A stretch of 32,000 bases of DNA from Chlamydiota bacterium (GCA_016196885.1 JACPWU010000011.1:30001-62000); one strand, 5' to 3'. Shown: positions 7,998 through 22,664, counted from the first letter of the stretch. A program made the numbers and translations. Notes: generated by a model from the sequence alone, not told the origin.

Positions 7998-8072
7998 TGG
8001 AGCGGCGGATGGGACTTGAACCCACGACATCCTGCTTGGCAAGCAGGCATTCTACCACTGAATTACCGCCGC
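7998..8072 (-). tRNA. tRNA-Gly (anticodon GCC), CCA encoded
   Basis: The reverse complement is GCGGCGGTAATTCAGTGGTAGAATGCCTGCTTGCCAAGCAGGATGTCGTGGGTTCAAGTCCCATCCGCCGCTCCA. It folds as a cloverleaf with anticodon loop TTGCCAA. Confidence 0.93.
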
Positions 8073-8078
8073 GTATCA

Positions 8079-8153
8079 ATTTCGGATTTTAGATTGCGGA
8101 TTTTGGATTTAGGGATCCAAAAAATCTAAAATCCGCAATCTAAAATCCGAAAT
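8079..8153. repeat. perfect 26-bp inverted repeat between tRNA-Gly and tRNA-Lys
   Basis: atttcggattttagattgcggatttt (8079-8104) is exactly complementary to aaaatccgcaatctaaaatccgaaat (8128-8153). The arms are made of 7-mers: atttcgg attttag attgcgg attttgg. Confidence 0.9.
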
Positions 8154-8158
8154 AACTT

Positions 8159-8231
8159 TGCGCCATGTAGGGATCGAACCTACGACCCACTGATTAAGAG
8201 TCAGTTGCTCTACCAACTGAGCTAATGGCGC
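8159..8231 (-). tRNA. tRNA-Lys (anticodon CTT)
   Basis: The reverse complement is GCGCCATTAGCTCAGTTGGTAGAGCAACTGACTCTTAATCAGTGGGTCGTAGGTTCGATCCCTACATGGCGCA. The anticodon loop is CTCTTAA. No CCA is encoded. Confidence 0.93.
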
Positions 8232-8357
8232 TTGTCATTGCCTATGTCAAAGTAAACGGGAAATCACGTTTGAGCAAGGTGAAGATGATATCAAGCCCGT
8301 ATTAAAAAGGGTAGTTGAAATTTTAGTCCTAATTCTTTTATGATGGTTAGACATGAT

Positions 8358-8439
8358 GCCGCGGTGGCGGAATTGGCAGACGCGTAGGATTTAGGATCCT
8401 ATACCGCAAGGTGTGGGGGTTCAAGTCCCTCCCGCGGCA
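8358..8439 (+). tRNA. tRNA-Leu (anticodon TAG), long variable arm
   Basis: The sequence is GCCGCGGTGGCGGAATTGGCAGACGCGTAGGATTTAGGATCCTATACCGCAAGGTGTGGGGGTTCAAGTCCCTCCCGCGGCA. The anticodon loop is TTTAGGA, and it has a class II variable arm. Confidence 0.92.
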
Positions 8440-8687
8440 ATTTCGAAGCCAGGCTTAAAGATTGCGAAAGACTATTTTTCTTTAAGGTGCTTTCACATAA
8501 GAGAAGGACTTGAAAGGAGGCCCGCATCCATTAGCAAGTATGCCGGTGGTAGATTTGCAAGTATAGCGGTAAACGGATCGGATGAATCTGACCCGTATCC
8601 TATTGTAAGGGTTACACCCCAAAATGCTCATTTGTGTTTTCGGCGATTTTGCTCCTCACCGTACGGGTGATATACGGTAAAATCTTG

Positions 8688-9053
8688 TTAAGCCGCCAAG
8701 TTAAATTCTACTGTATCGTATTCCACCACTGGCATTTTCACTGTTCTACCCGACACCTTTGACGTTTTCACTTTAAGGGCACCTGCCTCTTCAAGGAAGA
8801 GAATTACTTTGTTCAGATTCGATACGTCCATTCCGGTAATTTTTGCCAACTCATATACGGATTTCGGTTTGAAGACTAAAACATATTTTAAAATAGGCAA
8901 GTTCAGAACAAAACGGTCAAAATCTTTCTTATTGTCAAAGCTGATTTCAAAATGATGAGTTTTGAATTTAGCTTTTTTTGCATTGCCAAGTGCCTTTTTG
9001 AAATCATCGAGGATTTCATCTGATGTCTTAAAAGATACGATTAGATGTTTCAT
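8688..9053 (-). CDS. putative antitoxin / winged-helix DNA-binding protein (TumA / HVO_A0114-like)
   Basis: 121 aa with a C-terminal HTH-like segment SVYELAKITGMDVSNLNKVILFLEEAGALKV. It has a 4-nt ATGA overlap with the upstream small ORF. The family assignment is from memory. Confidence 0.55.
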   Translation of the reverse strand: MKHLIVSFKTSDEILDDFKKALGNAKKAKFKTHHFEISFDNKKDFDRFVLNLPILKYVLVFKPKSVYELAKITGMDVSNLNKVILFLEEAGALKVKTSKVSGRTVKMPVVEYDTVEFNLAA

Positions 9054-9340
9054 AATTTTACTCCCAAATGTTCTAAAACTAAGGATTTGAAATCTTGAAT
9101 CAGTTTTTCCTCATCGAAATATTCATAAGAAATTTCTCTACTATCTAAATGAACATGGGGTCCCTTGGGATGGTGATTATCCATTAAAACCCGCTTGCCA
9201 CTTTTTGTGTCCGTAAGGATCAAGCCGTATTTAACTCCATCTTTGTATTGAGTTGATTTGCCAACCTGATAAATCTCCATTTCAAGAACATACCGACCCT
9301 GGAGACGAGCCTTATGCCAATAAACCAAGGTGGCTTTCAT
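9050..9340 (-). CDS. putative toxin, TumE (DUF6516)-like
   Basis: 96 aa. The His-rich core DNHHPKGPHVHLD, followed by the tail ..YEY...EKLIQDF, resembles TumE-family proteins as I recall them. It is translationally coupled to the HTH gene. Confidence 0.5.
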   Translation of the reverse strand: MKATLVYWHKARLQGRYVLEMEIYQVGKSTQYKDGVKYGLILTDTKSGKRVLMDNHHPKGPHVHLDSREISYEYFDEEKLIQDFKSLVLEHLGVKL

Positions 9341-9394
9341 ATTGGTTTAATAATACCTATATTAATGGACAATGTCAAACATTAATTTGGACCG

Positions 9395-9411
9395 ATTTAG
9401 AAAATCTAAAT
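9395..9411. promoter_or_regulatory. 7-3-7 palindrome upstream of the TA pair (possible operator)
   Basis: atttaga-aaa-tctaaat lies 55-71 nt upstream of the TumE-like ATG. The words also resemble the attttag/aaaatct repeat words at 8079-8153, so it could be repeat-derived instead. Confidence 0.25.
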
Positions 9412-9443
9412 TGGGGAAGGTATTATTTTAACAACTGTCTTTC

Positions 9444-9968
9444 TCACTCCCAATTATTCACATCATCCCCATCCCCATTTTCGTTCACCCCATTGGGGCC
9501 TTGAGAATATAAATCATAGGTGTTCAAATTATTCACAGGAGGATATGCATAGTGATAAGCACTTTCCCAAGGGTCTAAAATTTCCTTCAAATCGTCATCC
9601 AAAGAACCCTCTCCATCAAAATCGCAAGCTGTTAAAACAGTCAGGCCAAGCTCCGCGCCCTGAAATTTCATATAAGGCCCTGCACTCCGAGAAGCATTGA
9701 CCCCTTTTACAAACGTGGCCCCCAAATAATAATAAAGGCATTCTGCACTGGATCGAGGGATACCCAAAATCTCATCGCTTGGGGGATACGCTCCAAAATC
9801 ATCTTCATACATTCTTAATGCAGCCCCGATAGAATCCATCATCAAATGAGCCCTAGAAAGATGCACCTTTTGCCGAGCCTTTAAAACCGCATTCAAAAGA
9901 AAGGCCATCACCACCCCCATGATAGACATCACAATCAAAACCTCTACGAGGGTATAAGCCTTCTTCAT
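9444..9968 (-). CDS. GspG-like pseudopilin (prepilin-type N-terminal cleavage/methylation domain)
   Basis: I chose the ATG at 9968, giving MKKAYTLVEVLIVMSIMGVV (the ORF-track start at 9983 is a TTG). It has a class III signal with the conserved Glu. The C-terminal ..DPWESAYHY...YSQGPNG..DDVNNW is GspG-like. There is an ATGA overlap with the upstream pseudopilin gene. Confidence 0.8.
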   Translation of the reverse strand: MKKAYTLVEVLIVMSIMGVVMAFLLNAVLKARQKVHLSRAHLMMDSIGAALRMYEDDFGAYPPSDEILGIPRSSAECLYYYLGATFVKGVNASRSAGPYMKFQGAELGLTVLTACDFDGEGSLDDDLKEILDPWESAYHYAYPPVNNLNTYDLYSQGPNGVNENGDGDDVNNWE

Positions 9969-10462
9969 CTTTTCCGACTCCAATTGTTGATATTGTCATC
10001 ATTCTCATCGCTGGGATCAGACGCACCATAAATATTTTCATCCAATTTCCAATTGGCATTGATCAAACGATCGGGTCCCGCCGAAGCCATATCCACAAAA
10101 TCCGGATGATTGAGACCCGGCTCGGCATAGTAATAAGGAATATTCCAGGGATCATAAAAAATATTCGATATCACACGCTTGCCAGGGAAAGCCATAAATT
10201 CCAAGAGTTGAGAAACCGGAACCAATTCTGTGAAACCGGAGGCCGCATAGGAATTGGGATATTCTCCATACTTTGCCTGATAACCTTCTAAAGCCAATTC
10301 TAATTTTGCAAGATCCGTTTGGGCCTCATGAATTCTCATCTTTTCAAAAGCCGTTTTTCCAACCGGAAGGAGAATGCCTAAAATGACAGCGATAATCATC
10401 ACGACCACCAACAACTCGATCACTGTAAAAGCGTTCTTGTGAAAACGACGGCTCTCGTCCAT
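9965..10462 (-). CDS. GspG-like pseudopilin
   Basis: 165 aa. The class III signal is MDESRRFHKNAFTVIELLVVVMIIAV. It also has ..YDPWNIPYYY...SAGPD...DDNINNW. Confidence 0.8.
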   Translation of the reverse strand: MDESRRFHKNAFTVIELLVVVMIIAVILGILLPVGKTAFEKMRIHEAQTDLAKLELALEGYQAKYGEYPNSYAASGFTELVPVSQLLEFMAFPGKRVISNIFYDPWNIPYYYAEPGLNHPDFVDMASAGPDRLINANWKLDENIYGASDPSDENDDNINNWSRKR

Positions 10463-10548
10463 ATATAAGAAGATCTCCGTATAGCCCTTCTTATATTTTA
10501 GCTGAAAAATGTTCTGGGGGTGAAAAAAAGGTGAGTTAACAACTTGGT

Positions 10549-11004
10549 TTACTTAACATTCACCAACTTAGAGGAACCCACGAAAAGGGTCAGTTCACCT
10601 AAGTCCAGCGTTTTGAAGGAATTAAAATCAGAATAGGATGCAATCACATATCCCGCAATGTCCTTCACGCTCACATCTTCAAGACTTGCAAGTTTTAAAA
10701 AACCTCTTAAACGCTCATCTTGGCCGCTAGCCCCTTCTAAAAGCTCCTCAGCAGTCTTTTCTTGATCATCGAGTGACAAGGCCTGAAACTTGCGAATTTG
10801 TTCATCAATATGAAATATAGTCTGAATAAAGGCCTGAAATCTCCCAACTTCTTTATTACCAACAGGTTGAGAAACTACAGAGAGAAAAGAACTCAGACTG
10901 TTTTCATCCACGTTAGAAGCTTGGGCTTCACAGCAAAACTGAAATCCAATCAAACTCACGATTAACCACAAATACCTTAAACCTTTGAGTACTTTTGTGC
11001 TCAT
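10549..11004 (-). CDS. hypothetical exported protein
   Basis: 151 aa with an ATG start and the signal-peptide-like N-terminus MSTKVLKGLRYLWLIVSLIGFQFCCEAQA. I recognise no motif. Confidence 0.6.
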   Translation of the reverse strand: MSTKVLKGLRYLWLIVSLIGFQFCCEAQASNVDENSLSSFLSVVSQPVGNKEVGRFQAFIQTIFHIDEQIRKFQALSLDDQEKTAEELLEGASGQDERLRGFLKLASLEDVSVKDIAGYVIASYSDFNSFKTLDLGELTLFVGSSKLVNVK

Positions 11005-11075
11005 CCTCGTTCAATCTCCTTTGCATATATAGACCCCTCTGGACTCGAAAAGATTAAATAAAAAATGAAAAATTT

Positions 11076-11100
11076 TAACTCATTCTATTAGAATGAGTTA
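11076..11100. promoter_or_regulatory. perfect 25-bp palindrome, operator-like (TAACTCATTCT-N3-AGAATGAGTTA)
   Basis: taactcattct-att-agaatgagtta lies 72-96 nt upstream of the ATG at 11004. The same half-site and spacing recur at 17714-17738. Confidence 0.45.
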
Positions 11101-11114
11101 TGTATAAAAAATTT

Positions 11115-11252
11115 GGCATATGCACTTGATTCCCCTTAGATAGCAAGCGCCATGGCAAGAAGTTGTAGTCGCCCCATTCATGGGGCTGTGCCCCTTGCAT
11201 GGGTTTGCCCGATGAATCGGGCGACTACAAAGGAGAATCAAGTGCATATGCC
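11115..11252. repeat. nested palindrome: 18-bp outer inverted repeat enclosing an expanded GTAG element (11163-11230)
   Basis: The outer arms are ggcatatgcacttgattc (11115-11132) and gaatcaagtgcatatgcc (11235-11252). The inner element is ttgtagtcgccccattcatggggctgtgccccttgcatgggtttgcccgatgaatcgggcgactacaa. That equals copy 1 with one substitution and an extra ~20-bp hairpin. Confidence 0.85.
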
Positions 11253-11333
11253 TATAAAAAATGAACGTCATCTGGAGAAAAAGCTCTGATGAAAATCAAG
11301 AGAAGAAGATCTAATCCTTAAACACTCACGCAC

Positions 11334-12662
11334 TTAGAAATACGCCTTTAACCCCCAACGAACAATGTGATCTTGCAAATCCTCGCTTGGGAAATCCGTA
11401 TCACGCTCCTGAAAGCTATACCCTGCCTCAACACTCAGCCAACTGAAAATAATTCTCCTCACATCCAGCGACGCATTGTAAAGCTCCGTGTCCTGATCCT
11501 CTGTGATGGAAGAGAGCAAAACATTGCTTTTATCAAAAGATTGGAGTTCATAACTCCCCTTCAAAATCAGAACCGTTTTCTTCGTCAAATAATGCTGAAA
11601 CACAAGAGAGAAACGGGTGGAGTTGTATTGCGTAAATTCAGAGCGTGAAGAATCCTGAAGTGACGAGCTGGCTGTAAAAATAAAAGTAGTATAGCGCGAA
11701 AAAGTAGAGGTAAGGCCCCCTACAATATCCAGATGATTGTCATCTGGAGAAGGGAGCGAACAGTTACATTCATCAAAGTCTTTCTCATCATAAGTGAATT
11801 TCAAATCGGCATTGAAAAGGTTGGGAAATTTTTTCTTAAAGCCCCCCGAATATAAATTGCTGAAAGAATCCTTCTCCTCAACTTCTGGAAAATTCATCTC
11901 CCTCAGGGCATATCCGCCGGTGAGAAAAAGGGTTGGGTTTATTTCAAATTCAAGATTTGAGATAAATCCATGAGCCTCTCGATCCACAGGATCATCCAAA
12001 TCTTTATCATCCACATCAATCTGATCATACTGATAAGAGAACTCTGAGACCCACCTCTGGGCAAGTTGCATTTTAACTTGGGGTTGAACGGAGATGATGT
12101 CATAGCCCAGCTGCAAAATCCGATCCCCAAAAAAAGTGGCAACTTTGCTTTCCTCCGTCACATCCCAACTGGCACGGCTCCCCACCGCAAAACGGGCATT
12201 GGGAGTCAAAAAGGCCAATCCTGAAAGGCTGTTAGATTGAACAATTTCATCTGAAGACGCATAATAGGCGTAGCGGCCAATCCACTCTGATTCGATATAA
12301 CCTAGATCCCCTCCAAAATGAAGATTGACATCGGGATTTAGCAGCGTCACAAAATCATTTTCTTCTTCATCTTCATCCAGAAAAATATTGCTGTCCCAAT
12401 ATTCGGAAACTCCCAGGACGGTACTGAAATGATCCTTGTAAAATTTTTTAAGACTCATGGGAGCCCGGGAAGGCTTTTCTTTTTTCTCTCCCGGAACAGG
12501 TTTCTCCTCAGGCTCTCCAACCGATTCTTGCTCCAAATCTTCAGAACTCCCAGAAAGAGTTTCGCTGGGTAAATCCTGCCTTTTTAAATCGGTGGCTCGA
12601 GAAGATGTGATGGAAAGTAAAAGAAAGGAGAGCAAAATCGCAAAAGTTTTCTCCCCCCGCAT
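11334..12662 (-). CDS. outer-membrane beta-barrel protein (family unknown)
   Basis: 442 aa. It has the signal peptide MRGEKTFAILLSFLLLSITSSRA, an acidic low-complexity linker, an alternating hydrophobic strand pattern, and a terminal ...GLKAYF with a C-terminal Phe typical of BAM substrates. Confidence 0.7.
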   Translation of the reverse strand: MRGEKTFAILLSFLLLSITSSRATDLKRQDLPSETLSGSSEDLEQESVGEPEEKPVPGEKKEKPSRAPMSLKKFYKDHFSTVLGVSEYWDSNIFLDEDEEENDFVTLLNPDVNLHFGGDLGYIESEWIGRYAYYASSDEIVQSNSLSGLAFLTPNARFAVGSRASWDVTEESKVATFFGDRILQLGYDIISVQPQVKMQLAQRWVSEFSYQYDQIDVDDKDLDDPVDREAHGFISNLEFEINPTLFLTGGYALREMNFPEVEEKDSFSNLYSGGFKKKFPNLFNADLKFTYDEKDFDECNCSLPSPDDNHLDIVGGLTSTFSRYTTFIFTASSSLQDSSRSEFTQYNSTRFSLVFQHYLTKKTVLILKGSYELQSFDKSNVLLSSITEDQDTELYNASLDVRRIIFSWLSVEAGYSFQERDTDFPSEDLQDHIVRWGLKAYF

Positions 12663-12759
12663 GAATCCCCCCTTTTTTGAAGTCAGAAGGATAATATCAA
12701 TTTCAATGATCCTTCGAGATCATCGTGTGTGATGAAAGTTCTCCCCATCATGCTTTTTC

Positions 12760-12806
12760 TGTAGTCGCCCGATTCATCGGGCAGCCCCATAAATGGGGCG
12801 ACTACA
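12760..12806 (-). repeat. 47-bp GTAG-headed Y-shaped element, copy 3 (inverted)
   Basis: tgtagtcgcccgattcatcgggcagccccataaatggggcgactaca is the exact reverse complement of 7648-7694. Confidence 0.9.
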
Positions 12807-12876
12807 GAATGAGCTTCACTTTCATAGCAAGATAATATCAAAAATTACTTTTCTTGAGAAAGAATAAATTTAAAAC

Positions 12877-13641
12877 TTATCCTTTATTCTTAGGCGAGGG
12901 AAGTGACGGACCTGAACCTGAAGGACCCCCCGAACCACTTCCAGCATTGCTCCCTATGCCTGAAGAAGAGGAGGAGGAATCAGAGGAAGATAACGGCCCA
13001 GAAGATGATGAGGAACCTTCCCCTATGTTCGAACCCAAACCAGAAGAGCCCCTAGAGGAGGAGGATCCCCCACTTCCAGAACCACCACTGGACGAGCTGA
13101 TAGATTCTCCTAAATCACGAATGGCAGAGGTGAGACTTCCCTCTGAACTATTTGAGGCAATACCTTCCAAACGGCTTCGAATGACGCCCGGTTCAAAACT
13201 GCCTAACACAGTCCCGCTTCCCTTGAAATTTTCAACCACACCCAATGTTGAAAAAGTCGAAACATACTGAATGCTGAAATTCTCTCCATCAAAAAGAAGG
13301 AGGGCCTGAACCTTGGGGACAGCGACAAGATCCCCGGCTACAGAACTAAAATCGCCTGTAAGGGGCATCAAATTAGGATTGGTAAGATTTAAGACAGCTT
13401 GCTTCACAATGTCCTTAAAATCATCTTTTAATATTTGAGCTTCCTGTCGAGAAAGATAAACATACGACCCTAAATCACGAATCGCAGCTCTCAAATGGAT
13501 GGCGGGAAGAATCTTTGCAATCTCTGGGTTAGCCTTCAAACTATCTTTAAAACTTCCCACGGACTCCTCCCTGGCCCAGGCCCCTGAATAAATCATGAAC
13601 CCACTCAAGATCACTGATAGCATTTTTAAGGTTGCTTTCAT
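12877..13641 (-). CDS. hypothetical exported protein with Ser/Gly-rich C-terminal tail
   Basis: 254 aa with the signal peptide MKATLKMLSVILSGFMIYSGAWA. A ~170-aa domain is followed by a ~70-aa S/G low-complexity tail. The motif AIRDLG occurs twice. Confidence 0.65.
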   Translation of the reverse strand: MKATLKMLSVILSGFMIYSGAWAREESVGSFKDSLKANPEIAKILPAIHLRAAIRDLGSYVYLSRQEAQILKDDFKDIVKQAVLNLTNPNLMPLTGDFSSVAGDLVAVPKVQALLLFDGENFSIQYVSTFSTLGVVENFKGSGTVLGSFEPGVIRSRLEGIASNSSEGSLTSAIRDLGESISSSSGGSGSGGSSSSRGSSGLGSNIGEGSSSSSGPLSSSDSSSSSSGIGSNAGSGSGGPSGSGPSLPSPKNKG

Positions 13642-13671
13642 AATTTTGATCCCTTCTTGTCCTCGTCCTCT

Positions 13672-14214
13672 TTATTTTCCAAATCTGAGCGAGGTCAGAA
13701 ATTCCTGAATATGCACATGCCCACTCACCCGGTGTTCTCCCCGCTTCACTCGATAATGAAAACCAAACGGACATTGGGGAATCTCCCCGGCGAAGAATCT
13801 TGGATCTCGAAAAAGCTCGTCTAAAGTCTCCCAGCGCCCATCCTTTTCATATTGATCTTGCCAGGCCTCATGGATGACCCTGATCACCTTGTGACAAAAA
13901 CCAACCCCTGTTTTATAAACTTCTTTTTCCTGCCCGGAAAGTTTGGACATGATGACAATGTAATCTTCTTCTGTCAAACCCGCACGAGCTTGCCAACCTT
14001 TCAAAGGACTGATTCCAAAAAGCTCTAAGGTATTAATGTAATCCTTCGTCAACGGGGCAGGTGGCAAATAACTCTGAAGGTTTAAAACATTGATCAATTG
14101 AACAGCAAATTCTCCCTGACTGATCCCATAGCCTGATTCTTCAGATGAAGCAGGAAGAACAGCCACTAGAAAAAAAACAAACATTAAAAGAGACCCTATG
14201 AACCCCCTCATCAT
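13672..14214 (-). CDS. hypothetical exported protein
   Basis: 180 aa with the signal peptide MMRGFIGSLLMFVFFLVAVLPASS. A strong AAGGAGG sits 5 nt upstream of the ATG. Confidence 0.65.
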   Translation of the reverse strand: MMRGFIGSLLMFVFFLVAVLPASSEESGYGISQGEFAVQLINVLNLQSYLPPAPLTKDYINTLELFGISPLKGWQARAGLTEEDYIVIMSKLSGQEKEVYKTGVGFCHKVIRVIHEAWQDQYEKDGRWETLDELFRDPRFFAGEIPQCPFGFHYRVKRGEHRVSGHVHIQEFLTSLRFGK

Positions 14215-14230
14215 TCTCCTCCTTTTTTAG

Positions 14231-14280
14231 AGCGTTCAGAGGACAAAAAAATATTTCTTATCATCCATACGCTGAACGCT
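14231..14280. repeat. short AGCGTTCAG / CTGAACGCT hairpin (same words as 4001-4080 and 19064-19150)
   Basis: A 9-bp stem joins agcgttcag (14231-14239) and ctgaacgct (14272-14280). It lies between the 730-aa and 180-aa genes. Confidence 0.7.
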
Positions 14281-14287
14281 TCATCCA

Positions 14288-16480
14288 TCATTTTGCCCCG
14301 CCCTGCCCAGAAGACCCAGAGGCATCTGCTGGATGTTCCATCGGTTCCCTAGAGGGAGCTACCTGAACAGGCGCATTCGAATTTAAAAGCCCTTGATTCA
14401 TCAAATCTTCCATGGGTAAAAACTTGGGTTCTTGCGAGAGGATAATCGGATGAACATCTTTCAACGTTAATTGATTTCCCGGAATCCTCTGGGCCAAATC
14501 ACTCAATTTTTGAAAAGTCTTTTCCTCAAAACGAGGAACCTCCTGTCTGGCCTTATCTTTTAACATATTGACGTCTACTTCAGGATACAAACTTTTCAAT
14601 TTTTGAAAAGTTCTCACCCATTTTTGAACAGCAACAGCCCTCTCGGTGTATTCTTCCAGTGTAGGCTCTCGGGACGCAGGCTTAGACAAAATAGACATTT
14701 GGCGAGACAACTGATTTTTGAGATCGTTAAGCCCTGAGGGAATCATACCTCTGTGGAATTTTTCAGCGGATAAAATATTTTCTCTTGCAAAAATTTGAAT
14801 GCTAAAAGATCGAAGGATTTTTTCAACTCCTCCAAAGGAATTTCGATAAATTTTCCAAGCCTGCGAAAAAGGCAAAGGCACTTTTGTTTGAATCACCCAT
14901 TTTTCTTCTCCTATTATTTTGGAAACTTTTCCCTTCAACGGCAGAATTCCCTCAAAAAGTGTATACGAAGGCTGACGAGAGATCAACTGCGTTCGCATCT
15001 GTGTTCCATAAGATTCATGCTGGAGCACTTTCCAATAAAGGTTGCTCTCCATCCAAAGATCGAAGAAAAACGCTTTAATAGATTCTCCACCCACTTCAAA
15101 ACGATCAAACACCCGAGAAGGTAAAGGAATAAAGGCAGGCTCGATTTTTGCCCTCTTCCCCTTCTTTGCTTGGATCGGACGTTGCAAGGGGACCCCTTCT
15201 AATTCTCCTAACCGCCTTTCCTCATGCATGCCTAAAATCACGACTCTCAGATGTGAAAGAATGTCATAATAAAATTCTCGATATTCATAAATGGCCCTTT
15301 CTGGAAATTGAACGGCGTGATATTCTTCAAGAGGTCGTCTGAAAATATCTTTTCCAAAGGGAACTGTCTCCTCATAGCGAGTCACATCCTCCCGCAAAGA
15401 GCTAGAAATAGTAGGCAAGGCCTCTCGTTTGAATGAGTCAGGAAGGCTCGCCTGGCTGATGGGGGTGTTGCCCTGCGAGGTGTAATGGATCCCCGTCACA
15501 TTTTCAAAGGGCTTCAATTCAAGTTCTAGTCCCAAGGTGCGTGCATTGGAATTTAAAACCCCGGCCAAGCCAAAGGCATCCCCTGTTAAGAATGAAAGGG
15601 CATGAATCCCAACGCTGCGATCAAACTCATGAATCATCTGGGCATATTTATTCGGTAACAAATCCTCAAGGTCTGTCACGGTGTGATCTAGGGTGCGAAC
15701 CGTCGTCCCCGTCACATCGCCCGTCGTAATATTGAAAGGTGTGGTGGTCTCTTCAAGCGTCCAACCCAGAGGTCGGCGCTGCTGGATGTCATTCGTGATG
15801 TCTTGAATGACACTGATCTTCTGATGCGTCTTCGTGGAAGACGTCTCTACGATCTCGTCCGTCACCTCTTCAAAATGAACGAGAAGGCCGTGAACGTCCA
15901 GTGTTTGCGTAGTCACAACGGTTTGAGTCGTGGTTTTACCCGGCTCTTCCTTCACAATTACATCGGTAAATTTAAGAGGAATGTTAAAATCAAAATCCAT
16001 TTCTTGAGTCGTCCTTATAATGGTTTCGATGAGGGTAATAATGCTTCCATCGTCTTGGACCTCTTTGTATTGAACCTTCTCTGTAAAATCCATTAGAACC
16101 CACGGACGATCTAGATCAAAACGATTGGCTGTGAAATTCGTCTGGGAACATCCGGGAAATCCCTCCACGCAAGTCGTCTCTTGGAAACTTTGGACGCGGT
16201 CTAGAATGTCGTATTGAAGGGTGCGGTCTTGCGTGTATTTCATCAGGCCACCATCTTGAGTGGTCAGCGTGTGATTTTCATCAAAGTGAACGTATCGGCC
16301 CAAAATATCGATATCCCCCGGGCGACTGGCATTGAATTCAAAAATATCGCGAACCCCATGAGGGGTCCGGTCGAAGGTGTATTTCGTCAATGTCTCCGAG
16401 TCGTCATACTCCATGTCGAAGGCCCGCTCGGTAAAGCGCTCCGAACTCTTCCCTTGAAAAGACTCTGGGAGACGACCCAA
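14288..16480 (-). CDS. large hypothetical protein, probably the C-terminal ~730 aa of a split ~1,080-aa gene
   Basis: This long ORF has no motif I recognise and no signal peptide. The ORF-track start is a TTG at 16480, preceded by AGGTGA. The first ATG is at 16414. The frame opens only at 16498, inside the end of the upstream ORF. Confidence 0.65.
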   Translation of the reverse strand: MGRLPESFQGKSSERFTERAFDMEYDDSETLTKYTFDRTPHGVRDIFEFNASRPGDIDILGRYVHFDENHTLTTQDGGLMKYTQDRTLQYDILDRVQSFQETTCVEGFPGCSQTNFTANRFDLDRPWVLMDFTEKVQYKEVQDDGSIITLIETIIRTTQEMDFDFNIPLKFTDVIVKEEPGKTTTQTVVTTQTLDVHGLLVHFEEVTDEIVETSSTKTHQKISVIQDITNDIQQRRPLGWTLEETTTPFNITTGDVTGTTVRTLDHTVTDLEDLLPNKYAQMIHEFDRSVGIHALSFLTGDAFGLAGVLNSNARTLGLELELKPFENVTGIHYTSQGNTPISQASLPDSFKREALPTISSSLREDVTRYEETVPFGKDIFRRPLEEYHAVQFPERAIYEYREFYYDILSHLRVVILGMHEERRLGELEGVPLQRPIQAKKGKRAKIEPAFIPLPSRVFDRFEVGGESIKAFFFDLWMESNLYWKVLQHESYGTQMRTQLISRQPSYTLFEGILPLKGKVSKIIGEEKWVIQTKVPLPFSQAWKIYRNSFGGVEKILRSFSIQIFARENILSAEKFHRGMIPSGLNDLKNQLSRQMSILSKPASREPTLEEYTERAVAVQKWVRTFQKLKSLYPEVDVNMLKDKARQEVPRFEEKTFQKLSDLAQRIPGNQLTLKDVHPIILSQEPKFLPMEDLMNQGLLNSNAPVQVAPSREPMEHPADASGSSGQGGAK

Positions 16481-17517
16481 ATCAAAATCACCTGTCCTTT
16501 AAACTCTCCTTCGGTGAAATATTGGATGTTGGAAACTTCTTCTCTTGCTATTTTGCCACTGGGCTCTGTCACTTCCTCGAAATAAGAACTGTAGTGATTG
16601 GCAAGACACTCCGGGCACTCCGTCCCCTCATAAAGCCCATGCGCCTGAAAATGTGTCAGGGTCTTGACGTCCTCTCCCTGTGACTGGGGAACTTCTTGAT
16701 CTAAAAGATCCCTCAATTCAGCCGTTCGATATTCATGGAGGACATATTCCTTCACGGTTTGAGGTGTGGGGGTCTCATTTGCCACCACATCCTCAATAAA
16801 ATAATCCATGAACCCGGCCTGAAAGGTTTTGATGCCGGCCTCTTTGGCCACACGATCTATGTCCTTTTGAAGGGAACCCTCAAGGTCCTTTAAATAGGGG
16901 TTGGTCCCTTGCATTCCCACCTGAAAATCTAAAAGGAGCGGGCTTTCCATTCTTTTCGTTTGGTCTGGAAATCCAACCCGAGCCACAGGGGCCCCCATAA
17001 AGTAATAGGTCGTGGGAACCACATCTCTGCCGTCCACTTTTTGCGTCTTCTCGTGAACATAGAAAAGACCGGCAGCAGAAATGCGAGCCATTTCCGTCTG
17101 AGAAGCTTTCTCTAGAGAAGCATGCGTTTTGGCCAGGTTGTATTGATTCATCAGGGTGGCCTGCTTTAAAGCAATGGAAGCGGTTTCACCTGAAGTAGAG
17201 GAAGAGGTGTTGGCTTTTTGTCCCAGGCGTTTCACCGATGAATCCAACGGATTCTGACGATTTCTTAAAATTTCCTGTCGAGTGAAATCCTCTCTCAGTT
17301 TTTCTTCGTAAGCAGTCTGGCGACGGGCTTGTGCAAGGGATTTTCCCTCTGAAGAAAGCCTGTTACGAGCGCCGTAGGATAGGAGATCATCCGAAGAAGA
17401 TTGATTGTAAGCAAGGTCAAGATCAGCGCCCCAGCCGATTTGAGCAAAAATAAAAAAAAGCGCACAGGTTAACTTTAGCGTTTCCTTCTTTCTCTTCCCA
17501 GCAGCTAAAAACTTCAT
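16387..17517 (-). CDS. hypothetical exported protein, probably the N-terminal part of the same split gene
   Basis: I chose the ATG at 17517 (MKFLAAGKRKKETLKLTCALFFIFAQIGWGADL, signal-like). The ORF-track start at 17529 is a TTG. The last ~30 residues (VILIWVVSQSLFKGRVRSALPSGPSTWSMTTRRH) look out of frame. Confidence 0.6.
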   Translation of the reverse strand: MKFLAAGKRKKETLKLTCALFFIFAQIGWGADLDLAYNQSSSDDLLSYGARNRLSSEGKSLAQARRQTAYEEKLREDFTRQEILRNRQNPLDSSVKRLGQKANTSSSTSGETASIALKQATLMNQYNLAKTHASLEKASQTEMARISAAGLFYVHEKTQKVDGRDVVPTTYYFMGAPVARVGFPDQTKRMESPLLLDFQVGMQGTNPYLKDLEGSLQKDIDRVAKEAGIKTFQAGFMDYFIEDVVANETPTPQTVKEYVLHEYRTAELRDLLDQEVPQSQGEDVKTLTHFQAHGLYEGTECPECLANHYSSYFEEVTEPSGKIAREEVSNIQYFTEGEFKGQVILIWVVSQSLFKGRVRSALPSGPSTWSMTTRRH

Positions 17518-17713
17518 TGAAGGCCTCAATGGTTTTCACCCAAGAAGCATTTGCTTTTCAGGTACCCGCCGACATGAATAAAAATAAATGAACGGCTGAG
17601 TAACTACTTCCTCGTTCCCACTCACGAAGAGAAAACTCTAAAGGATGTATCCCTTTTAATTTAACACCTAGAGGGGGGTGTGTCAAGAAAGGGGGGGATG
17701 AAATTTAAATCTT

Positions 17714-17738
17714 TAACTCATTCTGAAAGAACAAGTTA
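17714..17738. promoter_or_regulatory. second copy of the TAACTCATTCT-N3-AGAAnnAGTTA site
   Basis: taactcattct-gaa-agaacaagtta. The left half is identical to 11076-11086, the right half matches 9 of 11, and the spacing is the same. It lies ~180-200 nt upstream of the first gene of the block. Confidence 0.4.
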
Positions 17739-17747
17739 AGAGTTTTA

Positions 17748-17860
17748 AATGACAAATGACCCATAAGAAATGACAAATTAATTTACAATGATCCAATGTC
17801 CAATTGGAAATTTGTCATGGGTCATTCATTTGGCATTGGAAATCGGACATTTGTCATTTA
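17748..17860. repeat. AAATGAC-word nested palindrome downstream of nadX
   Basis: aaatgac aaatgac ccataag aaatgac faces atttgtc atgggtc. aaatgacaaatg (17748-17759) is exactly complementary to catttgtcattt (17849-17860). Confidence 0.75.
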
Positions 17861-17863
17861 GCT

Positions 17864-18679
17864 TCACGTCCCAATCTCAAGCCCAAAAAGTGCTTTTTCA
17901 AGCGTGGCGATAGCGGAAAAAGCCGCTAAAAGGCTGGTTTTAGGATTTTTATGGGAGGGTTCGTTTTCAATGACAAAAGAGGCTCGGCCAAACTCCCCTT
18001 CAATGACAATCTCATGAACATTTTTCTTGAGATGTCGGGAAGTCATCATTTTGACCCTTGTGCGGTCAGCTCCAATCCCAACGAGGCTTAGAGTCGCAGC
18101 GACATTCACATTTTGAGGAAATGCTCGAATCGCTTCTGATGCCTTGCCCTCAAAAATAAGTTTTTCTCCCAGGACTGAATCTAAATCAATCTTGGCTTGA
18201 ATAACATAAGGAGCCTCTCTCAAGGCCTCTACCGGTTTTTTGGTCGTGAGTTCGACAGAATAAATTTTTCCGACATGAGCCGACTTAAGAAGATCCACAC
18301 CTCCAATAGCACCTGAGGGAATTAAAATTCGAACTCTTTTTGAACGGACCTCTTCTAAAAGCGAGGGATCGAGTAAAAGTCCACCCACGCTCATGACCAA
18401 GAGATCTCGATTGAGAAGCATGACCTGTCTCAACAAATCCGGCACGACCTCTTGACAGGCTGCCTCAATTACGAGATCTGAAGATTCGACGCACTCTAAA
18501 AGAGTTCGAAGAGGGACATCAAAACCCAATTGCTGATCAAAAATTTCTTTTTTCTCGGAGTGAATTTCACAAACGGCAACCAGCTCAGCTACAGGACGGA
18601 AACGGTCCTTGATGGCCAAGGCCACTTGAGTTCCAATCGAGCCACAACCAATGATGGAAATACGCTTTTTAGCACTCAT
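17864..18679 (-). CDS. nadX: L-aspartate dehydrogenase-like protein
   Basis: 271 aa with the N-terminal Rossmann motif ISIIGCGSIG. The size and layout match TM1643-type aspartate dehydrogenase. There is an ATGA overlap with panD. Confidence 0.72.
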   Translation of the reverse strand: MSAKKRISIIGCGSIGTQVALAIKDRFRPVAELVAVCEIHSEKKEIFDQQLGFDVPLRTLLECVESSDLVIEAACQEVVPDLLRQVMLLNRDLLVMSVGGLLLDPSLLEEVRSKRVRILIPSGAIGGVDLLKSAHVGKIYSVELTTKKPVEALREAPYVIQAKIDLDSVLGEKLIFEGKASEAIRAFPQNVNVAATLSLVGIGADRTRVKMMTSRHLKKNVHEIVIEGEFGRASFVIENEPSHKNPKTSLLAAFSAIATLEKALFGLEIGT

Positions 18680-19044
18680 CCAATGCGTTTCACCTTGCCT
18701 TTGATCCGATTCTTCTCATTTACAAAAACAACTTTTGGACGATGCATTTTTGCCTTGGCCTCTTCGATCTGACCGTACGAAATGATTAGAACTTTATCGC
18801 CCACCAACCCCCATCGGGCCATGCCACCATTCATTCCAATGATTCCGGATCCCCTAGGCCCCCGCATGGCATAAGTTTCCATCCGGGCGCCATTGTTTAA
18901 ATTTACCACCTGGACCTTTTCAAAAGGAAGAATCCTAGAGGCTTCGAGAAGATTTTCATCAATGGTGATGCTCCCCTGATAATGAAGGTTGCTCTCGGTC
19001 ACTGTGGCACCGTGAATTTTAGATTTTAAGATACAGATGAGCAT
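18676..19044 (-). CDS. panD: aspartate 1-decarboxylase
   Basis: 122 aa. It contains KSKIHGATVTE and the self-processing site HYQGSITID. Confidence 0.92.
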   Translation of the reverse strand: MLICILKSKIHGATVTESNLHYQGSITIDENLLEASRILPFEKVQVVNLNNGARMETYAMRGPRGSGIIGMNGGMARWGLVGDKVLIISYGQIEEAKAKMHRPKVVFVNEKNRIKGKVKRIG

Positions 19045-19063
19045 AAAAATCTCCTGAAAAACA

Positions 19064-19150
19064 AGCGTTCAGCGTATAGCGTACAGCGGACAGTTTATAA
19101 GGAATTGATTTTTTTCTGTACGCTGAACGCTATACGCTGTACGCTATTTT
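19064..19150. repeat. AGCGTTC-word palindromic element, copy 2 (inverted relative to 4001-4080)
   Basis: agcgttc agcgtat agcgtac agcggac faces ctgtacg ctgaacg ctatacg ctgtacg. The loop cagtttataaggaattgattt is the reverse complement of the loop in copy 1. On the gene strand the hairpin is followed by T5, then AGGAG and the panD ATG. Confidence 0.85.
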
Positions 19151-19998
19151 TATTTCACTTCCATTATCAGATTGTCAATGAGACGAATTTTGTCTATATA
19201 GACAGCAATGGCAATTAAAATTTTCCCTTTTAAGATTTTGAATTTTTCAAGCGTTTCGCCGTTGACAATCTCAACATAATCTATTTTGACCCCTTTTCGG
19301 GCCATGATCATTTTTTTCATTTTTTGAGTGATTCGCGCGGGCCGCCTCTCCCCTGCAGAAATCATCACCTTGGCCATGAAAAGCACTTCGTTTAAACACA
19401 GGGCCTCTTCTCTCTCCTGGGCTGAAAGAAGCGCATTTCGAGAACTATGGGCCAGACCCTCATGATCCCGAACGGTAGGGACCACCTCTATTTGAATATC
19501 CCACGAAAGGTCTTTCACCATACGCTGAATCACGATGGCTTGCTGCGCATCTTTTTGCCCGAATAAAGCCACATGGGGTTTCACAAGGTTGAAAAGCTTG
19601 GCCACAACAGTGGTGACACCTCGAAAATGTCCAGGTCGTGATTGACCGCAAAGAACCTTGGATAAGTTTTCTTCCACCACATACGTGGAGAATCCCTCAG
19701 GGTATATTTGCTTGGCTGTCGGACAAAAAACAACATCCACATGATGACCTTGGGCGTAGTGAAGATCGCGCCTGAGAGGTTTGGGATAGGTTTTTAGGTC
19801 TTCCGGATCTGAAAATTGAATGGGATTTAAAAAAATGCTCAAGATCACCACATCCCCCCATTTATGGGCCTTCCTCAAAAGGCCCAAATGGCCTTCATGA
19901 AGAGCACCCATTGTGGGAACAAAGGCGATTTTCTTTCCGTCCAAGCGAAACCTTTCGGCTATTGCCTGCATTTCTCGCAAATCACGAATGACTTTCAT
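19150..19998 (-). CDS. panC: pantoate--beta-alanine ligase
   Basis: 282 aa with the PTMGALHEGH motif. There is an ATGA overlap with panB. Confidence 0.92.
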   Translation of the reverse strand: MKVIRDLREMQAIAERFRLDGKKIAFVPTMGALHEGHLGLLRKAHKWGDVVILSIFLNPIQFSDPEDLKTYPKPLRRDLHYAQGHHVDVVFCPTAKQIYPEGFSTYVVEENLSKVLCGQSRPGHFRGVTTVVAKLFNLVKPHVALFGQKDAQQAIVIQRMVKDLSWDIQIEVVPTVRDHEGLAHSSRNALLSAQEREEALCLNEVLFMAKVMISAGERRPARITQKMKKMIMARKGVKIDYVEIVNGETLEKFKILKGKILIAIAVYIDKIRLIDNLIMEVK

Positions 19999-20804
19999 GA
20001 GTAGATATGTTCCTTCGATGGAAATTTTCCTTTTTTCACGTCGTCCGCATAACTCTTAAAGGCCTCTCTCATCGTTTGCGCCAAATGCGCATATTGTTTT
20101 ACAAATTTTGGCTTCATTCCCTCGTAAAGCCCCAAAAGATCATGACTCACCAAAATTTGTCCATCACAATCGCTCCCCGCACCAATGCCGAGGGTGGGTA
20201 TTTCCAATTTTTCTGTGATCTCTCGAGCTAAAGTTGTGGGCACACATTCTAAGACAAGGCCAAAAACTCCAGCGTCTTGAAGAACCAGAGCATCTTCTAT
20301 CATTTCTTTTTGCTGACGTACATCTCTTCCCTGAACATGATAGCCGCTCTGGGCAATCACATGGGTGGGAAGCATACCCAGATGGCCCAGGACGGGAATT
20401 CCCACAGAAACCATTTTTTGAATCACATCCGCCAGGGTTCTACCGCCCTCTAATTTGACCGCTTGTGCATGAGCCTCTTGAATGAAACGAGCCGCATTGC
20501 GCAAGGTGTCTTCATGGGAAATTCCATAAGATGAAAAAGGCATGTCGGCTACAAGCAGGCTTTTTCGAACGCCCCGAGCCACGGCACGCGTGTGATGAAT
20601 CATGTCATCCAGGGTCACAGGCAAAGTGCTGGAATAACCCAAGACCACCATCCCCAGAGAATCTCCCACCAAAATAAGATCCGTCCCCACTTCATCTAGG
20701 ATTTTGGCCGTTCCATAATCGTAAGCCGTTAAGGCCACGATTTTTTCGTGCGCCTTTTTTTTCAGCTTCAAGATTTCCAATGTGACTTTCGTTTTTAGGC
20801 TCAT
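19995..20804 (-). CDS. panB: 3-methyl-2-oxobutanoate hydroxymethyltransferase
   Basis: 269 aa containing LTAYDY and VGDSLGMV. Confidence 0.92.
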   Translation of the reverse strand: MSLKTKVTLEILKLKKKAHEKIVALTAYDYGTAKILDEVGTDLILVGDSLGMVVLGYSSTLPVTLDDMIHHTRAVARGVRKSLLVADMPFSSYGISHEDTLRNAARFIQEAHAQAVKLEGGRTLADVIQKMVSVGIPVLGHLGMLPTHVIAQSGYHVQGRDVRQQKEMIEDALVLQDAGVFGLVLECVPTTLAREITEKLEIPTLGIGAGSDCDGQILVSHDLLGLYEGMKPKFVKQYAHLAQTMREAFKSYADDVKKGKFPSKEHIYS

Positions 20805-20807
20805 CCT

Positions 20808-21314
20808 TTACTCCAAGGGCAACAGCTCAAAAATGGGAACCGCTTTCTTGACACTCCATTTATCTCTCAGATTCTTCAAGAGATTTCCCACGGTCTCCTG
20901 AAAACCAGGATGAATCAAATGCTCATCCAATTCCGAAAGGGGTTCTAAGACAAATCGCCTTTCATGAAGTCGCGGGTGAGGAAGTGTCAATGCCTCATTT
21001 TCCATCATGTGAGACTCATAAAAAAGCAAATCCAAGTCGATGGATCGAGAAATATTTTTCCCCGAGCGGACCCGGCCCAATGCAGCCTCGATTTTAAGAA
21101 GACGATCAAGTAAACCGAGAGGTTCCTCTACAGTTTCAATTTCTAAAACTGCATTGTAAAACCACAAGCCTTCGCAATGTACAGGCTCTGTCTCATAAAC
21201 ACTGGAAAGGCGCAAAATTAAAATGCTGTGTGTGTCTCCAATGAGAGAAATCGCCTTTTTCAAAAATGTCAGGCGATCTCCTACATTAGATCCTAAACCG
21301 ATGTATGCTTTCAT
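20808..21314 (-). CDS. folK: 2-amino-4-hydroxy-6-hydroxymethyldihydropteridine diphosphokinase
   Basis: 168 aa containing AYIGLGSNVGD and SIDLDLL. folK-panB-panC adjacency is also seen in E. coli. Confidence 0.85.
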   Translation of the reverse strand: MKAYIGLGSNVGDRLTFLKKAISLIGDTHSILILRLSSVYETEPVHCEGLWFYNAVLEIETVEEPLGLLDRLLKIEAALGRVRSGKNISRSIDLDLLFYESHMMENEALTLPHPRLHERRFVLEPLSELDEHLIHPGFQETVGNLLKNLRDKWSVKKAVPIFELLPLE

Positions 21315-21363
21315 GAAAGTATCTACGTTGTTATTTTTTCGATTGAATGTTTGTCAGTATGAA

Positions 21364-21462
21364 TTAACTCCCCCAACCCCTCTTTCCCATGGGGACTATA
21401 ACCTCTTAAAATAAGAGGGGAGTCTGTCCTCCCCTTATTTAAGGGGAGTTAGAGGGGTTAAA
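21364..21462. repeat. TAACTCCCCC-family structured repeat, copy (99 bp)
   Basis: The sequence runs ttaactcccccaacccctct...cctcttaaaataagagg...ctccccttatttaaggggagttagaggggttaa. It has two internal hairpins and complementary termini. Confidence 0.8.
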
Positions 21463-21485
21463 TATTCTATTCTTCGTGAGTCCTT

Positions 21486-22664
21486 CTAAACCAACGCCAC
21501 TTTTTTCAAACGCAACACGGCTTCTCGAATTCTTGCCACGGGAACGGTGATGGAAAAACGAATATAGCCCTCGCCGCTCACGCCAAAGCCAACGCCCGGG
21601 GTTGCAACAATCCCCGTCTCTGAAAGCAGACGCAAAGCCATGGCCTTTGAAGACGTGCCCTCGGGCAAAGAGGCCCAGATATAAAAAGAGGCCTTTGGCG
21701 CCTTCACCTTCCAGCCTGCTTCTTTTAAACCAGCCATTAAAACATCCCGTCTCTCTCGATACGTTTTGAGAAGCTCCTCTCGATCCCGATCGGAGAAAGA
21801 AAGCGCCCGAATGCCCGCCCATTGAATCGCTTGAAAAATGCCAGAGTCTACATTGGATTTGACCTTGGCCAGCCCTTGAATGACTGGGGCATGCCCTACG
21901 GCAAAACCGATTCTCCAGCCCGTCATGTTATAGGTTTTGGAAAGAGAATGAAACTCAATTCCTATTTCCTTGGCTCCCTCAGCCTCCAAAAAACTGTGCG
22001 GTTTTTCCTCGTAATAAACCTCGGTATAAGCGGCATCATGACAAACGAGGATGTTGTTTTTTTTCGCAAATTGAACCGCTTCTTTAAAAAAATCTAAAGA
22101 GGCCGTGGCTCCGGTCGGATTGTTCGGGTAGTTGATAAACATCATTTTTGCCTTTGTAAGATCTTTTTGGGAAAGACCTGCCAAACAGGGGAGAAAGTTA
22201 TTTTTCTCGAGCAAACTCATGTAAACAGGTTCTCCCCCCGCAAACCAAGTTCCCGACTGATAGACAGGGTAGCCTGGCTCAGGCACAAGCACACGATCCC
22301 CCGGATTGATAAAAGCCAGGGGAATATGTCCAATCCCCTCTTTGGAACCAATCAAAGGAAGAATTTCTGTGTCAGCTTTAAGACTAACCCCAAACCGCCT
22401 GGCGTACCACTGAGCAATAGCCTTTCTAAATTCTGCCAGGCCCGCATCCAAGGAATAGCGATGATTCTTAGGGTCCCGAGCCGCTCGATAAAGCTCTTCA
22501 ATAATCGGCTGCGGTGTTGGAAGATCCGGATCTCCAACCCCTAAATCAATAATGTCTTTCCCTTCAGAAAGGGCCTTCCTCCTTGCCCGGTCTATTTCGA
22601 TAAATAAATAGGGCGGAAGTTTTTTGATACGATCTGCAAATTCGAAATTCATGCCACTCATCAT
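21486..22664 (-). CDS. dapL: LL-diaminopimelate aminotransferase
   Basis: 392 aa. It contains KKLPPYLFIEIDR, LGVGDPDLPTPQ, NYPNNPTGA and FHSLSKTYNMTGWRIG, which match the DapL family as I recall it. It lies next to dapB and dapA. Confidence 0.8.
   Translation of the reverse strand: MMSGMNFEFADRIKKLPPYLFIEIDRARRKALSEGKDIIDLGVGDPDLPTPQPIIEELYRAARDPKNHRYSLDAGLAEFRKAIAQWYARRFGVSLKADTEILPLIGSKEGIGHIPLAFINPGDRVLVPEPGYPVYQSGTWFAGGEPVYMSLLEKNNFLPCLAGLSQKDLTKAKMMFINYPNNPTGATASLDFFKEAVQFAKKNNILVCHDAAYTEVYYEEKPHSFLEAEGAKEIGIEFHSLSKTYNMTGWRIGFAVGHAPVIQGLAKVKSNVDSGIFQAIQWAGIRALSFSDRDREELLKTYRERRDVLMAGLKEAGWKVKAPKASFYIWASLPEGTSSKAMALRLLSETGIVATPGVGFGVSGEGYIRFSITVPVARIREAVLRLKKVALV

Follow-up and report, generated by a model that had tools for sequence, protein, structure and literature searches.

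Gene content of the block

We describe here a block of seven co-oriented genes at positions 9444-17529 of a 32,000-nucleotide (nt) stretch of DNA from the Chlamydiota bacterium metagenome-assembled genome (MAG) GCA_016196885.1 (JACPWU010000011.1:30001-62000). We refer to this stretch as the window, and the evidence base for the whole analysis is computational. In the order of transcription the genes encode a giant protein, a protein of 180 amino acids (aa) which we call p180, a 254-aa protein, a beta-barrel protein, a 151-aa protein and two pseudopilins, A and B (Table 1). A preliminary description of the locus had counted eight genes. All eight of the open reading frames (ORFs) that it named were recovered by ORF calling, but the gene count is seven because the first two ORFs are a single 1144-aa gene split by a deletion. 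Direct reading of the translations suggests a plausible Sec-type signal peptide on each of the five non-pilin products. Public annotation lists the products as hypothetical, save for 'outer membrane beta-barrel protein' and 'GspG', the latter being the label of the 174-aa pseudopilin B. The profile searches which the preliminary description had proposed placed the barrel in the BBP2_2 family, and to that extent its statement that none of the non-pilin proteins could be recognised does not hold. With the giant, p180, 254-aa and 151-aa proteins, searches of Pfam, NCBIfam and PDB sequences gave no significant match. Literature searches found no description of the p180 family or of this combination of genes. 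The block matches no canonical type II secretion system (T2SS) or type IV pilus (T4P) operon, as had been remarked at the outset, and sequence comparison indicates that it is a real, conserved and uncharacterised envelope gene cluster of uncultured Chlamydiota.

Table 1. Features of the block, genes in the order of transcription followed by two pattern-matched sites.
Feature	Position	Strand	Remarks
Giant gene, 5' ORF	16387-17529	minus	380 aa as ORF; likely start ATG 17517
Giant gene, 3' fragment	14288-16480	minus	730 aa, HYZ67_01860
p180	13672-14214	minus	180 aa, Sec-exported; SLH-like ~30-95, pilin-head-like ~95-170
254-aa exported protein	12877-13641	minus	Ser/Gly tail of ~70 aa; lineage-specific
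Outer-membrane beta-barrel	11334-12662	minus	442 aa, BBP2_2 / TIGR03016-like, ends ...KAYF
151-aa exported protein	10549-11004	minus	Without family match
Pseudopilin A, GspG-like	9965-10462	minus	165 aa
Pseudopilin B, GspG-like	9444-9983 as ORF (179 aa)	minus	Real start ATG 9968, giving 9444-9968 and 174 aa
Promoter-like site	17658-17686	minus	TTGACA, 17-nt spacer, TAAATT, with TG; 10/12 consensus matches
Perfect 11-bp hairpin	11076-11100	minus	Within the 329-nt gap from the barrel gene to the 151-aa gene; pattern match only

Conservation of p180, barrel and pseudopilins

The block was compared with nine related loci of a Chlamydiota clade and with the distant loci L010, L011, L013 and L015. 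The closest other genome is a second MAG (GCA_016196915.1, locus L002), in which the block has the same order beside nadX: a giant protein of 1232 aa is followed by proteins of 179, 258, 428 (the barrel), 158 and 166 aa (a pseudopilin). The giant and 151-aa proteins are each 40% identical to those of the window, p180 is 71% identical, the barrel 62% and the pseudopilin 50%. The counterpart of the 254-aa protein is one by position and architecture only, as BLASTP finds no similarity, and the 151-aa protein has its homologue in L002 alone. The giant, 254-aa and 151-aa genes are all dropped in more diverged loci. Co-occurrence in related genomes, which the preliminary description had put forward as a check, is found in the same order in L002 and is lost for these three families beyond it. 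The idea that eight genes form one conserved unit must be given up, since only p180 and the barrel, together with the pseudopilins, recur.

The arrangement of these recurrent genes varies between loci. Loci L004/L005 and L006 carry nadX, a DUF1559/H-X9-DG-type pilin, p180, the barrel, two pseudopilins and then an unrelated giant protein. L007 has a 126-aa protein, p180, the barrel and a pseudopilin; the contigs of L016 and of the P0015 locus begin at the barrel and continue with one or more T2SSG genes; and the P0017 locus has a 179-aa protein in the p180 position (identity unverified), the barrel and a 160-aa protein. L009 has an unrelated giant protein, p180, a 149-aa Ser/Thr-rich protein, the barrel, an ExeA-like ATPase, a T2SSB-domain protein and SecA. 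Overall, a p180 homologue is confirmed upstream of the barrel in six of the nine clade loci (adjacent in three, with one small gene between in three), and a GspG-like gene lies 3' of the barrel in seven of the nine, one of the others being undetermined and one having GspA/GspB-like genes instead. In the distant metagenomic loci L013 and L015 the p180 and barrel genes are 1-3 nt apart, in either order. On this comparison p180 and the barrel form the conserved core, behind which GspG-like pseudopilins are usually found; the pseudopilins are an addition to that core in this Chlamydiota clade.

Four representative proteins of 514-593 aa (P0036, P0038, P0060 and P0029) are fusions of the two core components, in which the p180 domain comes first and a complete barrel makes up the C-terminal part. 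Against the barrel profile they reach 227, 145, 86 and 82 bits, respectively, and against the p180 profile 49-105 bits. It is well supported, and in our view very probable, that p180 works with the barrel as a single unit. A word-indexed search returned only seven relatives of p180, and those with a named source were all from Chlamydiota. With a profile, 102 relatives at E <= 1e-3, 33 of them at E <= 1e-10, were recovered from 1.84 billion representative proteins. Clustered at 50% identity, the family has ~100 clusters in the representative library that was searched. A profile scan of genome contigs with the p180 alignment gave no match, and a metagenome scan with a narrower alignment (A5) yielded three short contigs.

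The outer-membrane barrel

The 442-aa product had been described as an outer-membrane barrel, and both its sequence and its predicted structure bear this out. It reaches the cut-off of Pfam BBP2_2 (PF10082; 25.1 bits against 23.7), with residues 317-440 only aligned, and precomputed PF10082 matches are on record for eight of nine homologues. Among named families, TIGR03016 and EpsL come closest, with scores far under the cut-offs: 26.2 bits for TIGR03016 (cut-off 90.85) and 14 bits for TIGR03014 (cut-off 275). An AlphaFold model made with nine homologues has 18 strands, with pLDDT 70-90 over the barrel. Foldseek returned 308 PDB matches to this model at E <= 0.001, and all those listed are outer-membrane barrels; the best TM-score is ~0.5, to the 18-strand OccK porins, and the matches are otherwise to generic barrels. 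The chain ends in a C-terminal Phe. It also bears an N-terminal extension of ~50 aa (~residues 20-70) which is disordered, acidic and Pro-rich and contains a conserved EEKPxPGE motif. The barrel is an 18-strand relative of the BBP2_2 / PEP-CTERM-associated outer-membrane proteins. As a minor point, the window copy has a six-residue insertion, CNCSLP (11739-11756, ~residues 303-308), which is absent from all eight aligned homologues.

A scan of genome contigs with the barrel alignment found only distant relatives, in exopolysaccharide (EPS) loci. Two of these, L010 and L011 (from a UBP3 MAG and another MAG), contain a sugar transferase, an EpsD-like PPIase, Poly_export and a Wzz-kinase. Such relatives raise the question of whether the barrel is a remnant of a PEP-CTERM / EpsL-type EPS export locus which still exports or anchors polymer, the Ser/Gly-rich protein being a glycosylated matrix component. 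The matches to BBP2_2, TIGR03016 and EpsL would fit this idea, as would the retention of a PEP-CTERM-associated ATPase beside the barrel in L009. We nevertheless find it most improbable: the TIGR03016 score is far under its threshold, no glycosyltransferase, Wza/Wzc or exosortase was found in the window or among the genes called in the clade loci, and no PEP-CTERM-type sorting tail was seen when the C-termini of the window proteins, including the giant and 254-aa proteins, were read by eye. Moreover, the barrel of the window is flanked by nadX-pan on one side and by a toxin-antitoxin-like pair and tRNAs on the other, and it is paired with p180 and pseudopilins. We noted in L010 (2081-3347) and L011 (8550-9851) a gene for a 181- or 180-aa protein just 5' of the barrel, with a faint motif like that of the p180 N-terminal half (14 bits in L010). 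A 212/221-aa neighbour has an HEMGH metalloprotease-like motif, and neither it nor the 181/180-aa protein has a Pfam match.

The two halves of p180

The Sec-type signal of p180 (MMRGFIGSLLMFVFFLVAVLPASS) is followed by two regions. The N-terminal half contains a module of ~65 aa (residues ~30-95) with the pattern xTxGEFAxxLVxxLxL ... GIxPLxGW ... LTxxDxxVI. Some proteins have this module in tandem, and 8 of 101 members combine it with FecR domains. When a 38-sequence profile of this half was compared with all PDB sequences, the six best matches were all SLH proteins, led by B. anthracis Sap (3pyw, 6bt4; E 1.8e-4, 24.3 bits) and followed by 9g93 (E 0.01) and P. alvei SpaA (6cwc, 6cwm, 6cwr; E ~0.02). 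In these alignments the canonical SLH motifs, G...TRAE and TRAEFAxxLV, fall in register. On the strength of this profile match we lean towards the N-terminal half being a distant SLH relative, albeit by a weak link.

The C-terminal half (~95-170) has the motif C..N..IN..W...G.W..L..LL.D..YFP.G.P.CPxG..Y.D..GDH.V..H.H. Its profile matches four short proteins, P0061, P0107, P0101 and P0114, at 93, 70, 68 and 58 bits, and all four are genuine prepilins that score above the Pfam N_methyl cut-off. Because it is homologous to these prepilins, the C-terminal half can be described as a pilin head that lacks the pilin membrane helix: p180 itself has no N_methyl match and lacks a class III signal and hydrophobic N-terminal helix. 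Residues C106, C147, H165 and H167 are all present in 25 of 39 aligned family members. They co-vary as a set across these and related prepilins, and the H-x-H pair is missing in all six members that do not have both cysteines. This co-variation suggests a putative periplasmic Cys2His2 metal site in the pilin-type head. A plain disulfide was considered and dropped in favour of the four-residue site, since the H-x-H pair co-varies with the cysteine pair.

The pseudopilins and type II secretion-derived neighbours

The preliminary description had recognised two translationally coupled, GspG-like pseudopilins in the block, and the profile searches agree. Pseudopilins A and B pass the cut-offs of both N_methyl (29.0 and 22.3 bits; cut-off 21.2) and T2SSG (PF08334; 41.9 and 40.1 bits; cut-off 21), and their genes share a 4-nt ATGA overlap at the stop of pseudopilin A. 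Class III signals could be read directly in each (...KNA/FTVIE in A, ...KKA/YTLVE in B). Like GspG, both have Glu5 and a C-terminal DPW...Y.Y...D.NNW motif, which in pseudopilin A takes the form DPWNIPYYY...DDNINNW. They differ from GspG in falling short of the equivalog model TIGR01710 (55.5 and 60.9 bits against 88.85), in the insertion that pseudopilin B carries between the N-terminal helix and the C-terminal sheet, and in their surroundings: there is no gspC-F or gspH-O nearby, and their neighbours are the barrel and p180. The 'GspG' labels of the two proteins are not secure. Neither assembly machinery nor minor pseudopilins were found among 28 window ORFs (Pfam) or the genes called in the clade loci.

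In L009 the place of the pseudopilins is taken by genes that resemble GspA/GspB (ExeA/ExeB), a pair that the window does not contain. Here (L009:7528-9682) the p180-barrel pair is followed by an AAA_22 ATPase and a T2SSB-domain protein, so that the barrel family is again associated with parts derived from type II secretion. The ATPase is of the PEP-CTERM-associated, ExeA-like kind, at 319 bits against the TIGR03015 cut-off of 324.5, and the T2SSB-domain protein also weakly matches the C-terminus of SctD/CdsD.

The giant gene and its deletion

That the 380-aa and 730-aa ORFs were probably one protein, of an estimated ~1,080 aa, had already been suggested. A sibling contig, L001 (JACOUD010000035.1 of GCA_016178005.1), settles the matter. 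It is 99.98-100% identical to window 8171-22457 and holds 205 extra nt at window 16488-16490 (L001 5971-6172; blastn and direct reading), where the intact gene is the single 1144-aa ORF HYS08_04830. The window's own MAG annotates the gene as two proteins, HYZ67_01865 (376 aa) and HYZ67_01860 (730 aa), the first of which (16387-17517) opens with the Sec-type signal MKFLAAGKRKKETLKLTCALFFIFAQIGWGA. The deletion takes out ~68 residues (~344-411), which are conserved in the 40%-identical orthologue P0002, and shifts the frame; its junction, on the minus strand, shows TGA microhomology. The window copy is thus disrupted, and this may reflect either a real deletion in the population or an assembly error. 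For annotation purposes the giant protein should be treated as one gene that is broken in this assembly.

A giant exported protein beside a barrel and pseudopilins invites the view, close to the fibre, adhesin or export module of the preliminary description, that the block is a dedicated export and display system in which a pseudopilus would act as a piston and drive the giant protein (and perhaps the Ser/Gly-tailed one) through the barrel to the cell surface as a fibre or adhesin. Consistent with this, the seven genes are co-oriented behind one promoter-like site and all have exported products, their order is kept in L002, and no known domain is found in the giant protein, which begins with a signal peptide. 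The comparative data argue the other way. Homologues of the giant and 151-aa proteins are confined to the closest other genome, where the 254-aa protein has a positional counterpart alone; the large neighbours of the core in L004, L006 and L009 share no homology with the giant protein of the window; and the core pair is found without any such cargo. Further, the barrel is probably too narrow for a folded protein of 1144 aa, to judge by analogy with the OccK porins, no secretin, ATPase or platform gene is at hand in the window, and the giant gene is disrupted in this genome while the remainder of the block is intact. We therefore think this view very unlikely, and exporting the giant protein is probably not the dedicated task of the block. 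The SLH-like and pilin-head-like domains of p180 suggest instead a role in anchoring or docking within the envelope.

The very large proteins that follow the pseudopilins in L004 (5568-10880) and L006 (4145-7627) exceed 1771 and 1161 aa, respectively, and have internal repeats. They are related to each other and have no NCBIfam match. For the giant protein of L009, a SecA-like assignment was tried and rejected (BLASTP E 0.06).

A candidate anchor between outer membrane and cell wall

The architecture of the core recalls a known group of proteins. OmpM, SlpA and Slp-type SLH-barrel proteins are outer-membrane tethers of diderm Terrabacteria (PMC10628300; bioRxiv 10.1101/2021.05.31.446380). As in OmpM and SlpA, a periplasmic module of wall-binding type (SLH there, SLH-like here) is combined with an outer-membrane barrel, at about one SLH-type motif per chain, and the four p180-barrel fusions unite both parts in a single chain with the same N-to-C order. 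There are also several differences. In the window the module and the barrel are split over two genes; the barrel is of the BBP2_2 type with 18 strands, whereas OmpM is a 16-strand porin and SlpA a 30-strand barrel; and a pilin-head-like Cys2His2 domain stands in place of the coiled-coil stalk of OmpM, the linker of the fused relatives likewise having no recognised coiled coil. The host, finally, is a member of the Chlamydiota and so lies within the Gracilicutes. In a published survey OmpM was absent, and SLH/CsaB practically absent, from the Gracilicutes, which include the PVC superphylum (bioRxiv 10.1101/2021.05.31.446380), and the published picture is one in which OmpM-type tethers occur only in Terrabacteria and Pal/OmpA/Lpp only in Gracilicutes.

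Our preferred, though tentative, reading is that the core encodes a two-part, OmpM-like anchor from the outer membrane to the wall, on which a pseudopilus is able to dock. The 442-aa product is an 18-strand outer-membrane barrel, and p180, elsewhere the N-terminal domain of the same polypeptide, is its periplasmic partner. By analogy with OmpM and SlpA, the pair would tie the outer membrane to a wall layer. In this Chlamydiota clade two GspG-like pseudopilins would be coupled to the pair and would be assembled by a type II secretion or T4P machine whose genes lie elsewhere in the genome; the short pseudopilus that they would form is likely to make contact with the pilin-like head of p180. Taken together, the parts could span the envelope from inner to outer membrane, wall included, as a strut or docking site, while the giant, Ser/Gly-tailed and 151-aa proteins would be lineage-specific exported accessories. 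Shown here are the homologies, the adjacency and fusion of p180 and barrel, the fold of the barrel and the neighbourhood across the clade, whereas binding to the wall and to metal, contact of p180 with the pseudopilus and the function of the whole are inferred. The coupling to a pseudopilus is supported because three independent associations with type IV filament components are seen (the downstream pseudopilins, the DUF1559 pilin and the GspA/GspB-like genes), and further because p180 itself holds a pilin-head domain.

Several observations weigh against this interpretation. On the side of the SLH-like module, Pfam SLH finds no match on the window p180, on the family consensus or on a triple-consensus construct, and among 101 p180 members it matches one (E 0.004) and fails on the other 100; the link therefore depends on the PDB profile search, whose E-value was obtained by adding up two short segments. 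Nor has the family kept the Arg of the TRAE motif: the equivalent position reads LTEEDY in the window and LT(K/N/R/E)xD across the family. As for the pilin-type head, its comparison with PDB sequences returned no solved pilin and only insignificant, zinc-finger-like matches. Structure prediction lends support to neither half, as the AlphaFold model made with seven homologues reached only pLDDT 52, too poor for use. With regard to the pseudopilins, position -1 is Ala in both window proteins and Gly in most orthologues, and the preliminary description was right that the window encodes no secretion ATPase, platform protein, secretin or prepilin peptidase. Finally, there are no pilin genes near the p180-barrel pairs of L013 and L015, and the nadX-panD adjacency is kept in the same clade loci, so that the adjacency of barrel and pseudopilins could simply be inherited synteny.

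These last points lead to a more mundane account, in which p180 and the barrel are an ordinary porin or tether and the pseudopilins are the genome's normal type II set, adjacent through inherited gene order. The nadX-panD neighbourhood shows that the synteny is partly historical, the distant pairs lack pilin neighbours, L009 has a p180-barrel pair without pilins, and the 174-aa protein is after all publicly annotated as GspG. However, the region from nadX to the pseudopilins has been remodelled several times and yet the order p180, barrel, pseudopilin stays, and all of the inserted genes encode exported or pilin-like products. Type IV filament parts have been gained twice independently (the DUF1559 pilin in L004/L006, the ExeA-like and T2SSB-like genes in L009), p180 carries a pilin-head domain, and both pseudopilins fall under the GspG equivalog cut-off. 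On balance we judge an ordinary porin or tether with chance neighbours to be rather unlikely.

Returning to the docked anchor, its components are of both familiar and new kinds. The pseudopilins, the BBP2_2 barrel and the SLH-like module belong to known kinds; new are the p180 family with its pilin-head module, the joining of p180 to the barrel by fusion or pairing, and the link to pseudopilins in Chlamydiota. p180 defines a family outside Pfam and NCBIfam which is tied by fusion to a widespread and functionally uncharacterised class of barrels (BBP2_2 / PEP-CTERM-associated). If its N-terminal half truly is an SLH relative, then the SLH-plus-barrel architecture is present in the PVC group. 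A helix-less pilin head that is fused to or paired with a barrel, beside pseudopilins, also suggests a route from a periplasmic pseudopilus to the outer membrane which does not involve a secretin. The boldest version of this idea, which we put forward as unlikely but worth stating, is that an OmpM-like tether of SLH-type module and barrel exists in a Gracilicutes phylum and is wired to type IV filament parts. In it the pilin-mimic head would cap or dock a short pseudopilus, pseudopilin, SLH-like adaptor and BBP2_2 barrel would form one strut that connects both membranes and the wall, and BBP2_2 / PEP-CTERM-type barrels would more broadly be outer-membrane partners of type II secretion-derived machinery.

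Transcription signals and genomic setting

Operon signals count here as weak evidence only. The promoter-like site of Table 1, found by a consensus scan and a pattern match only, lies within the 346-nt gap between nadX and the giant gene and is a candidate promoter of the block; the hairpin may be an internal terminator or attenuator. The GC content of the block (0.41-0.48) agrees with that of its flanks. A horizontally acquired island was considered and found no support, given this composition and the same nadX-panD position in diverged relatives.

Twenty flanking ORFs between 899 and 31308, nearly all of those of at least 100 aa, are housekeeping or biosynthetic only according to Pfam, among them serA, an aminotransferase, clpX, clpP, tig, the aspartate dehydrogenase gene nadX, panD, panC, panB, folK, dapB, dapA, lysA, argH, argG, argF and argD. 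The window is rich in biosynthesis (serA and the arg, dap, lysA, pan, nadX and folK genes) though the MAG is labelled Chlamydiae, and this density suggests an organism less host-dependent than the classical chlamydiae. Three tRNA genes lie at 7998-8440, and Rfam gave nothing else.

Between the tRNAs and the pseudopilins, at 8688-9340, is a toxin-antitoxin-like pair: one product, of 96 aa, is without family match, and the other, of 121 aa, is a winged-helix protein of the HVO_A0114 type. A strong promoter-like site from the consensus scan (9378-9350, 11/12 matches) belongs to this pair. L002 carries a PIN and MazE pair at this point, and the interval between pseudopilins and tRNAs is therefore a variable toxin-antitoxin slot. 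The sibling contig L001 (14432-14579) matches the window up to 8171, inside tRNA-Lys (window 8159-8231), and diverges beyond it: its T-arm and the 3' end of its acceptor differ, and ARAGORN does not call a tRNA-Lys at this place. The contig end may be chimeric, or the tRNA may mark a point of rearrangement or integration. Lastly, a 138-aa, Glu/Pro-rich antisense ORF on the plus strand (12854-13270) mirrors the Ser/Gly tail of the 254-aa gene and is almost certainly not a gene.

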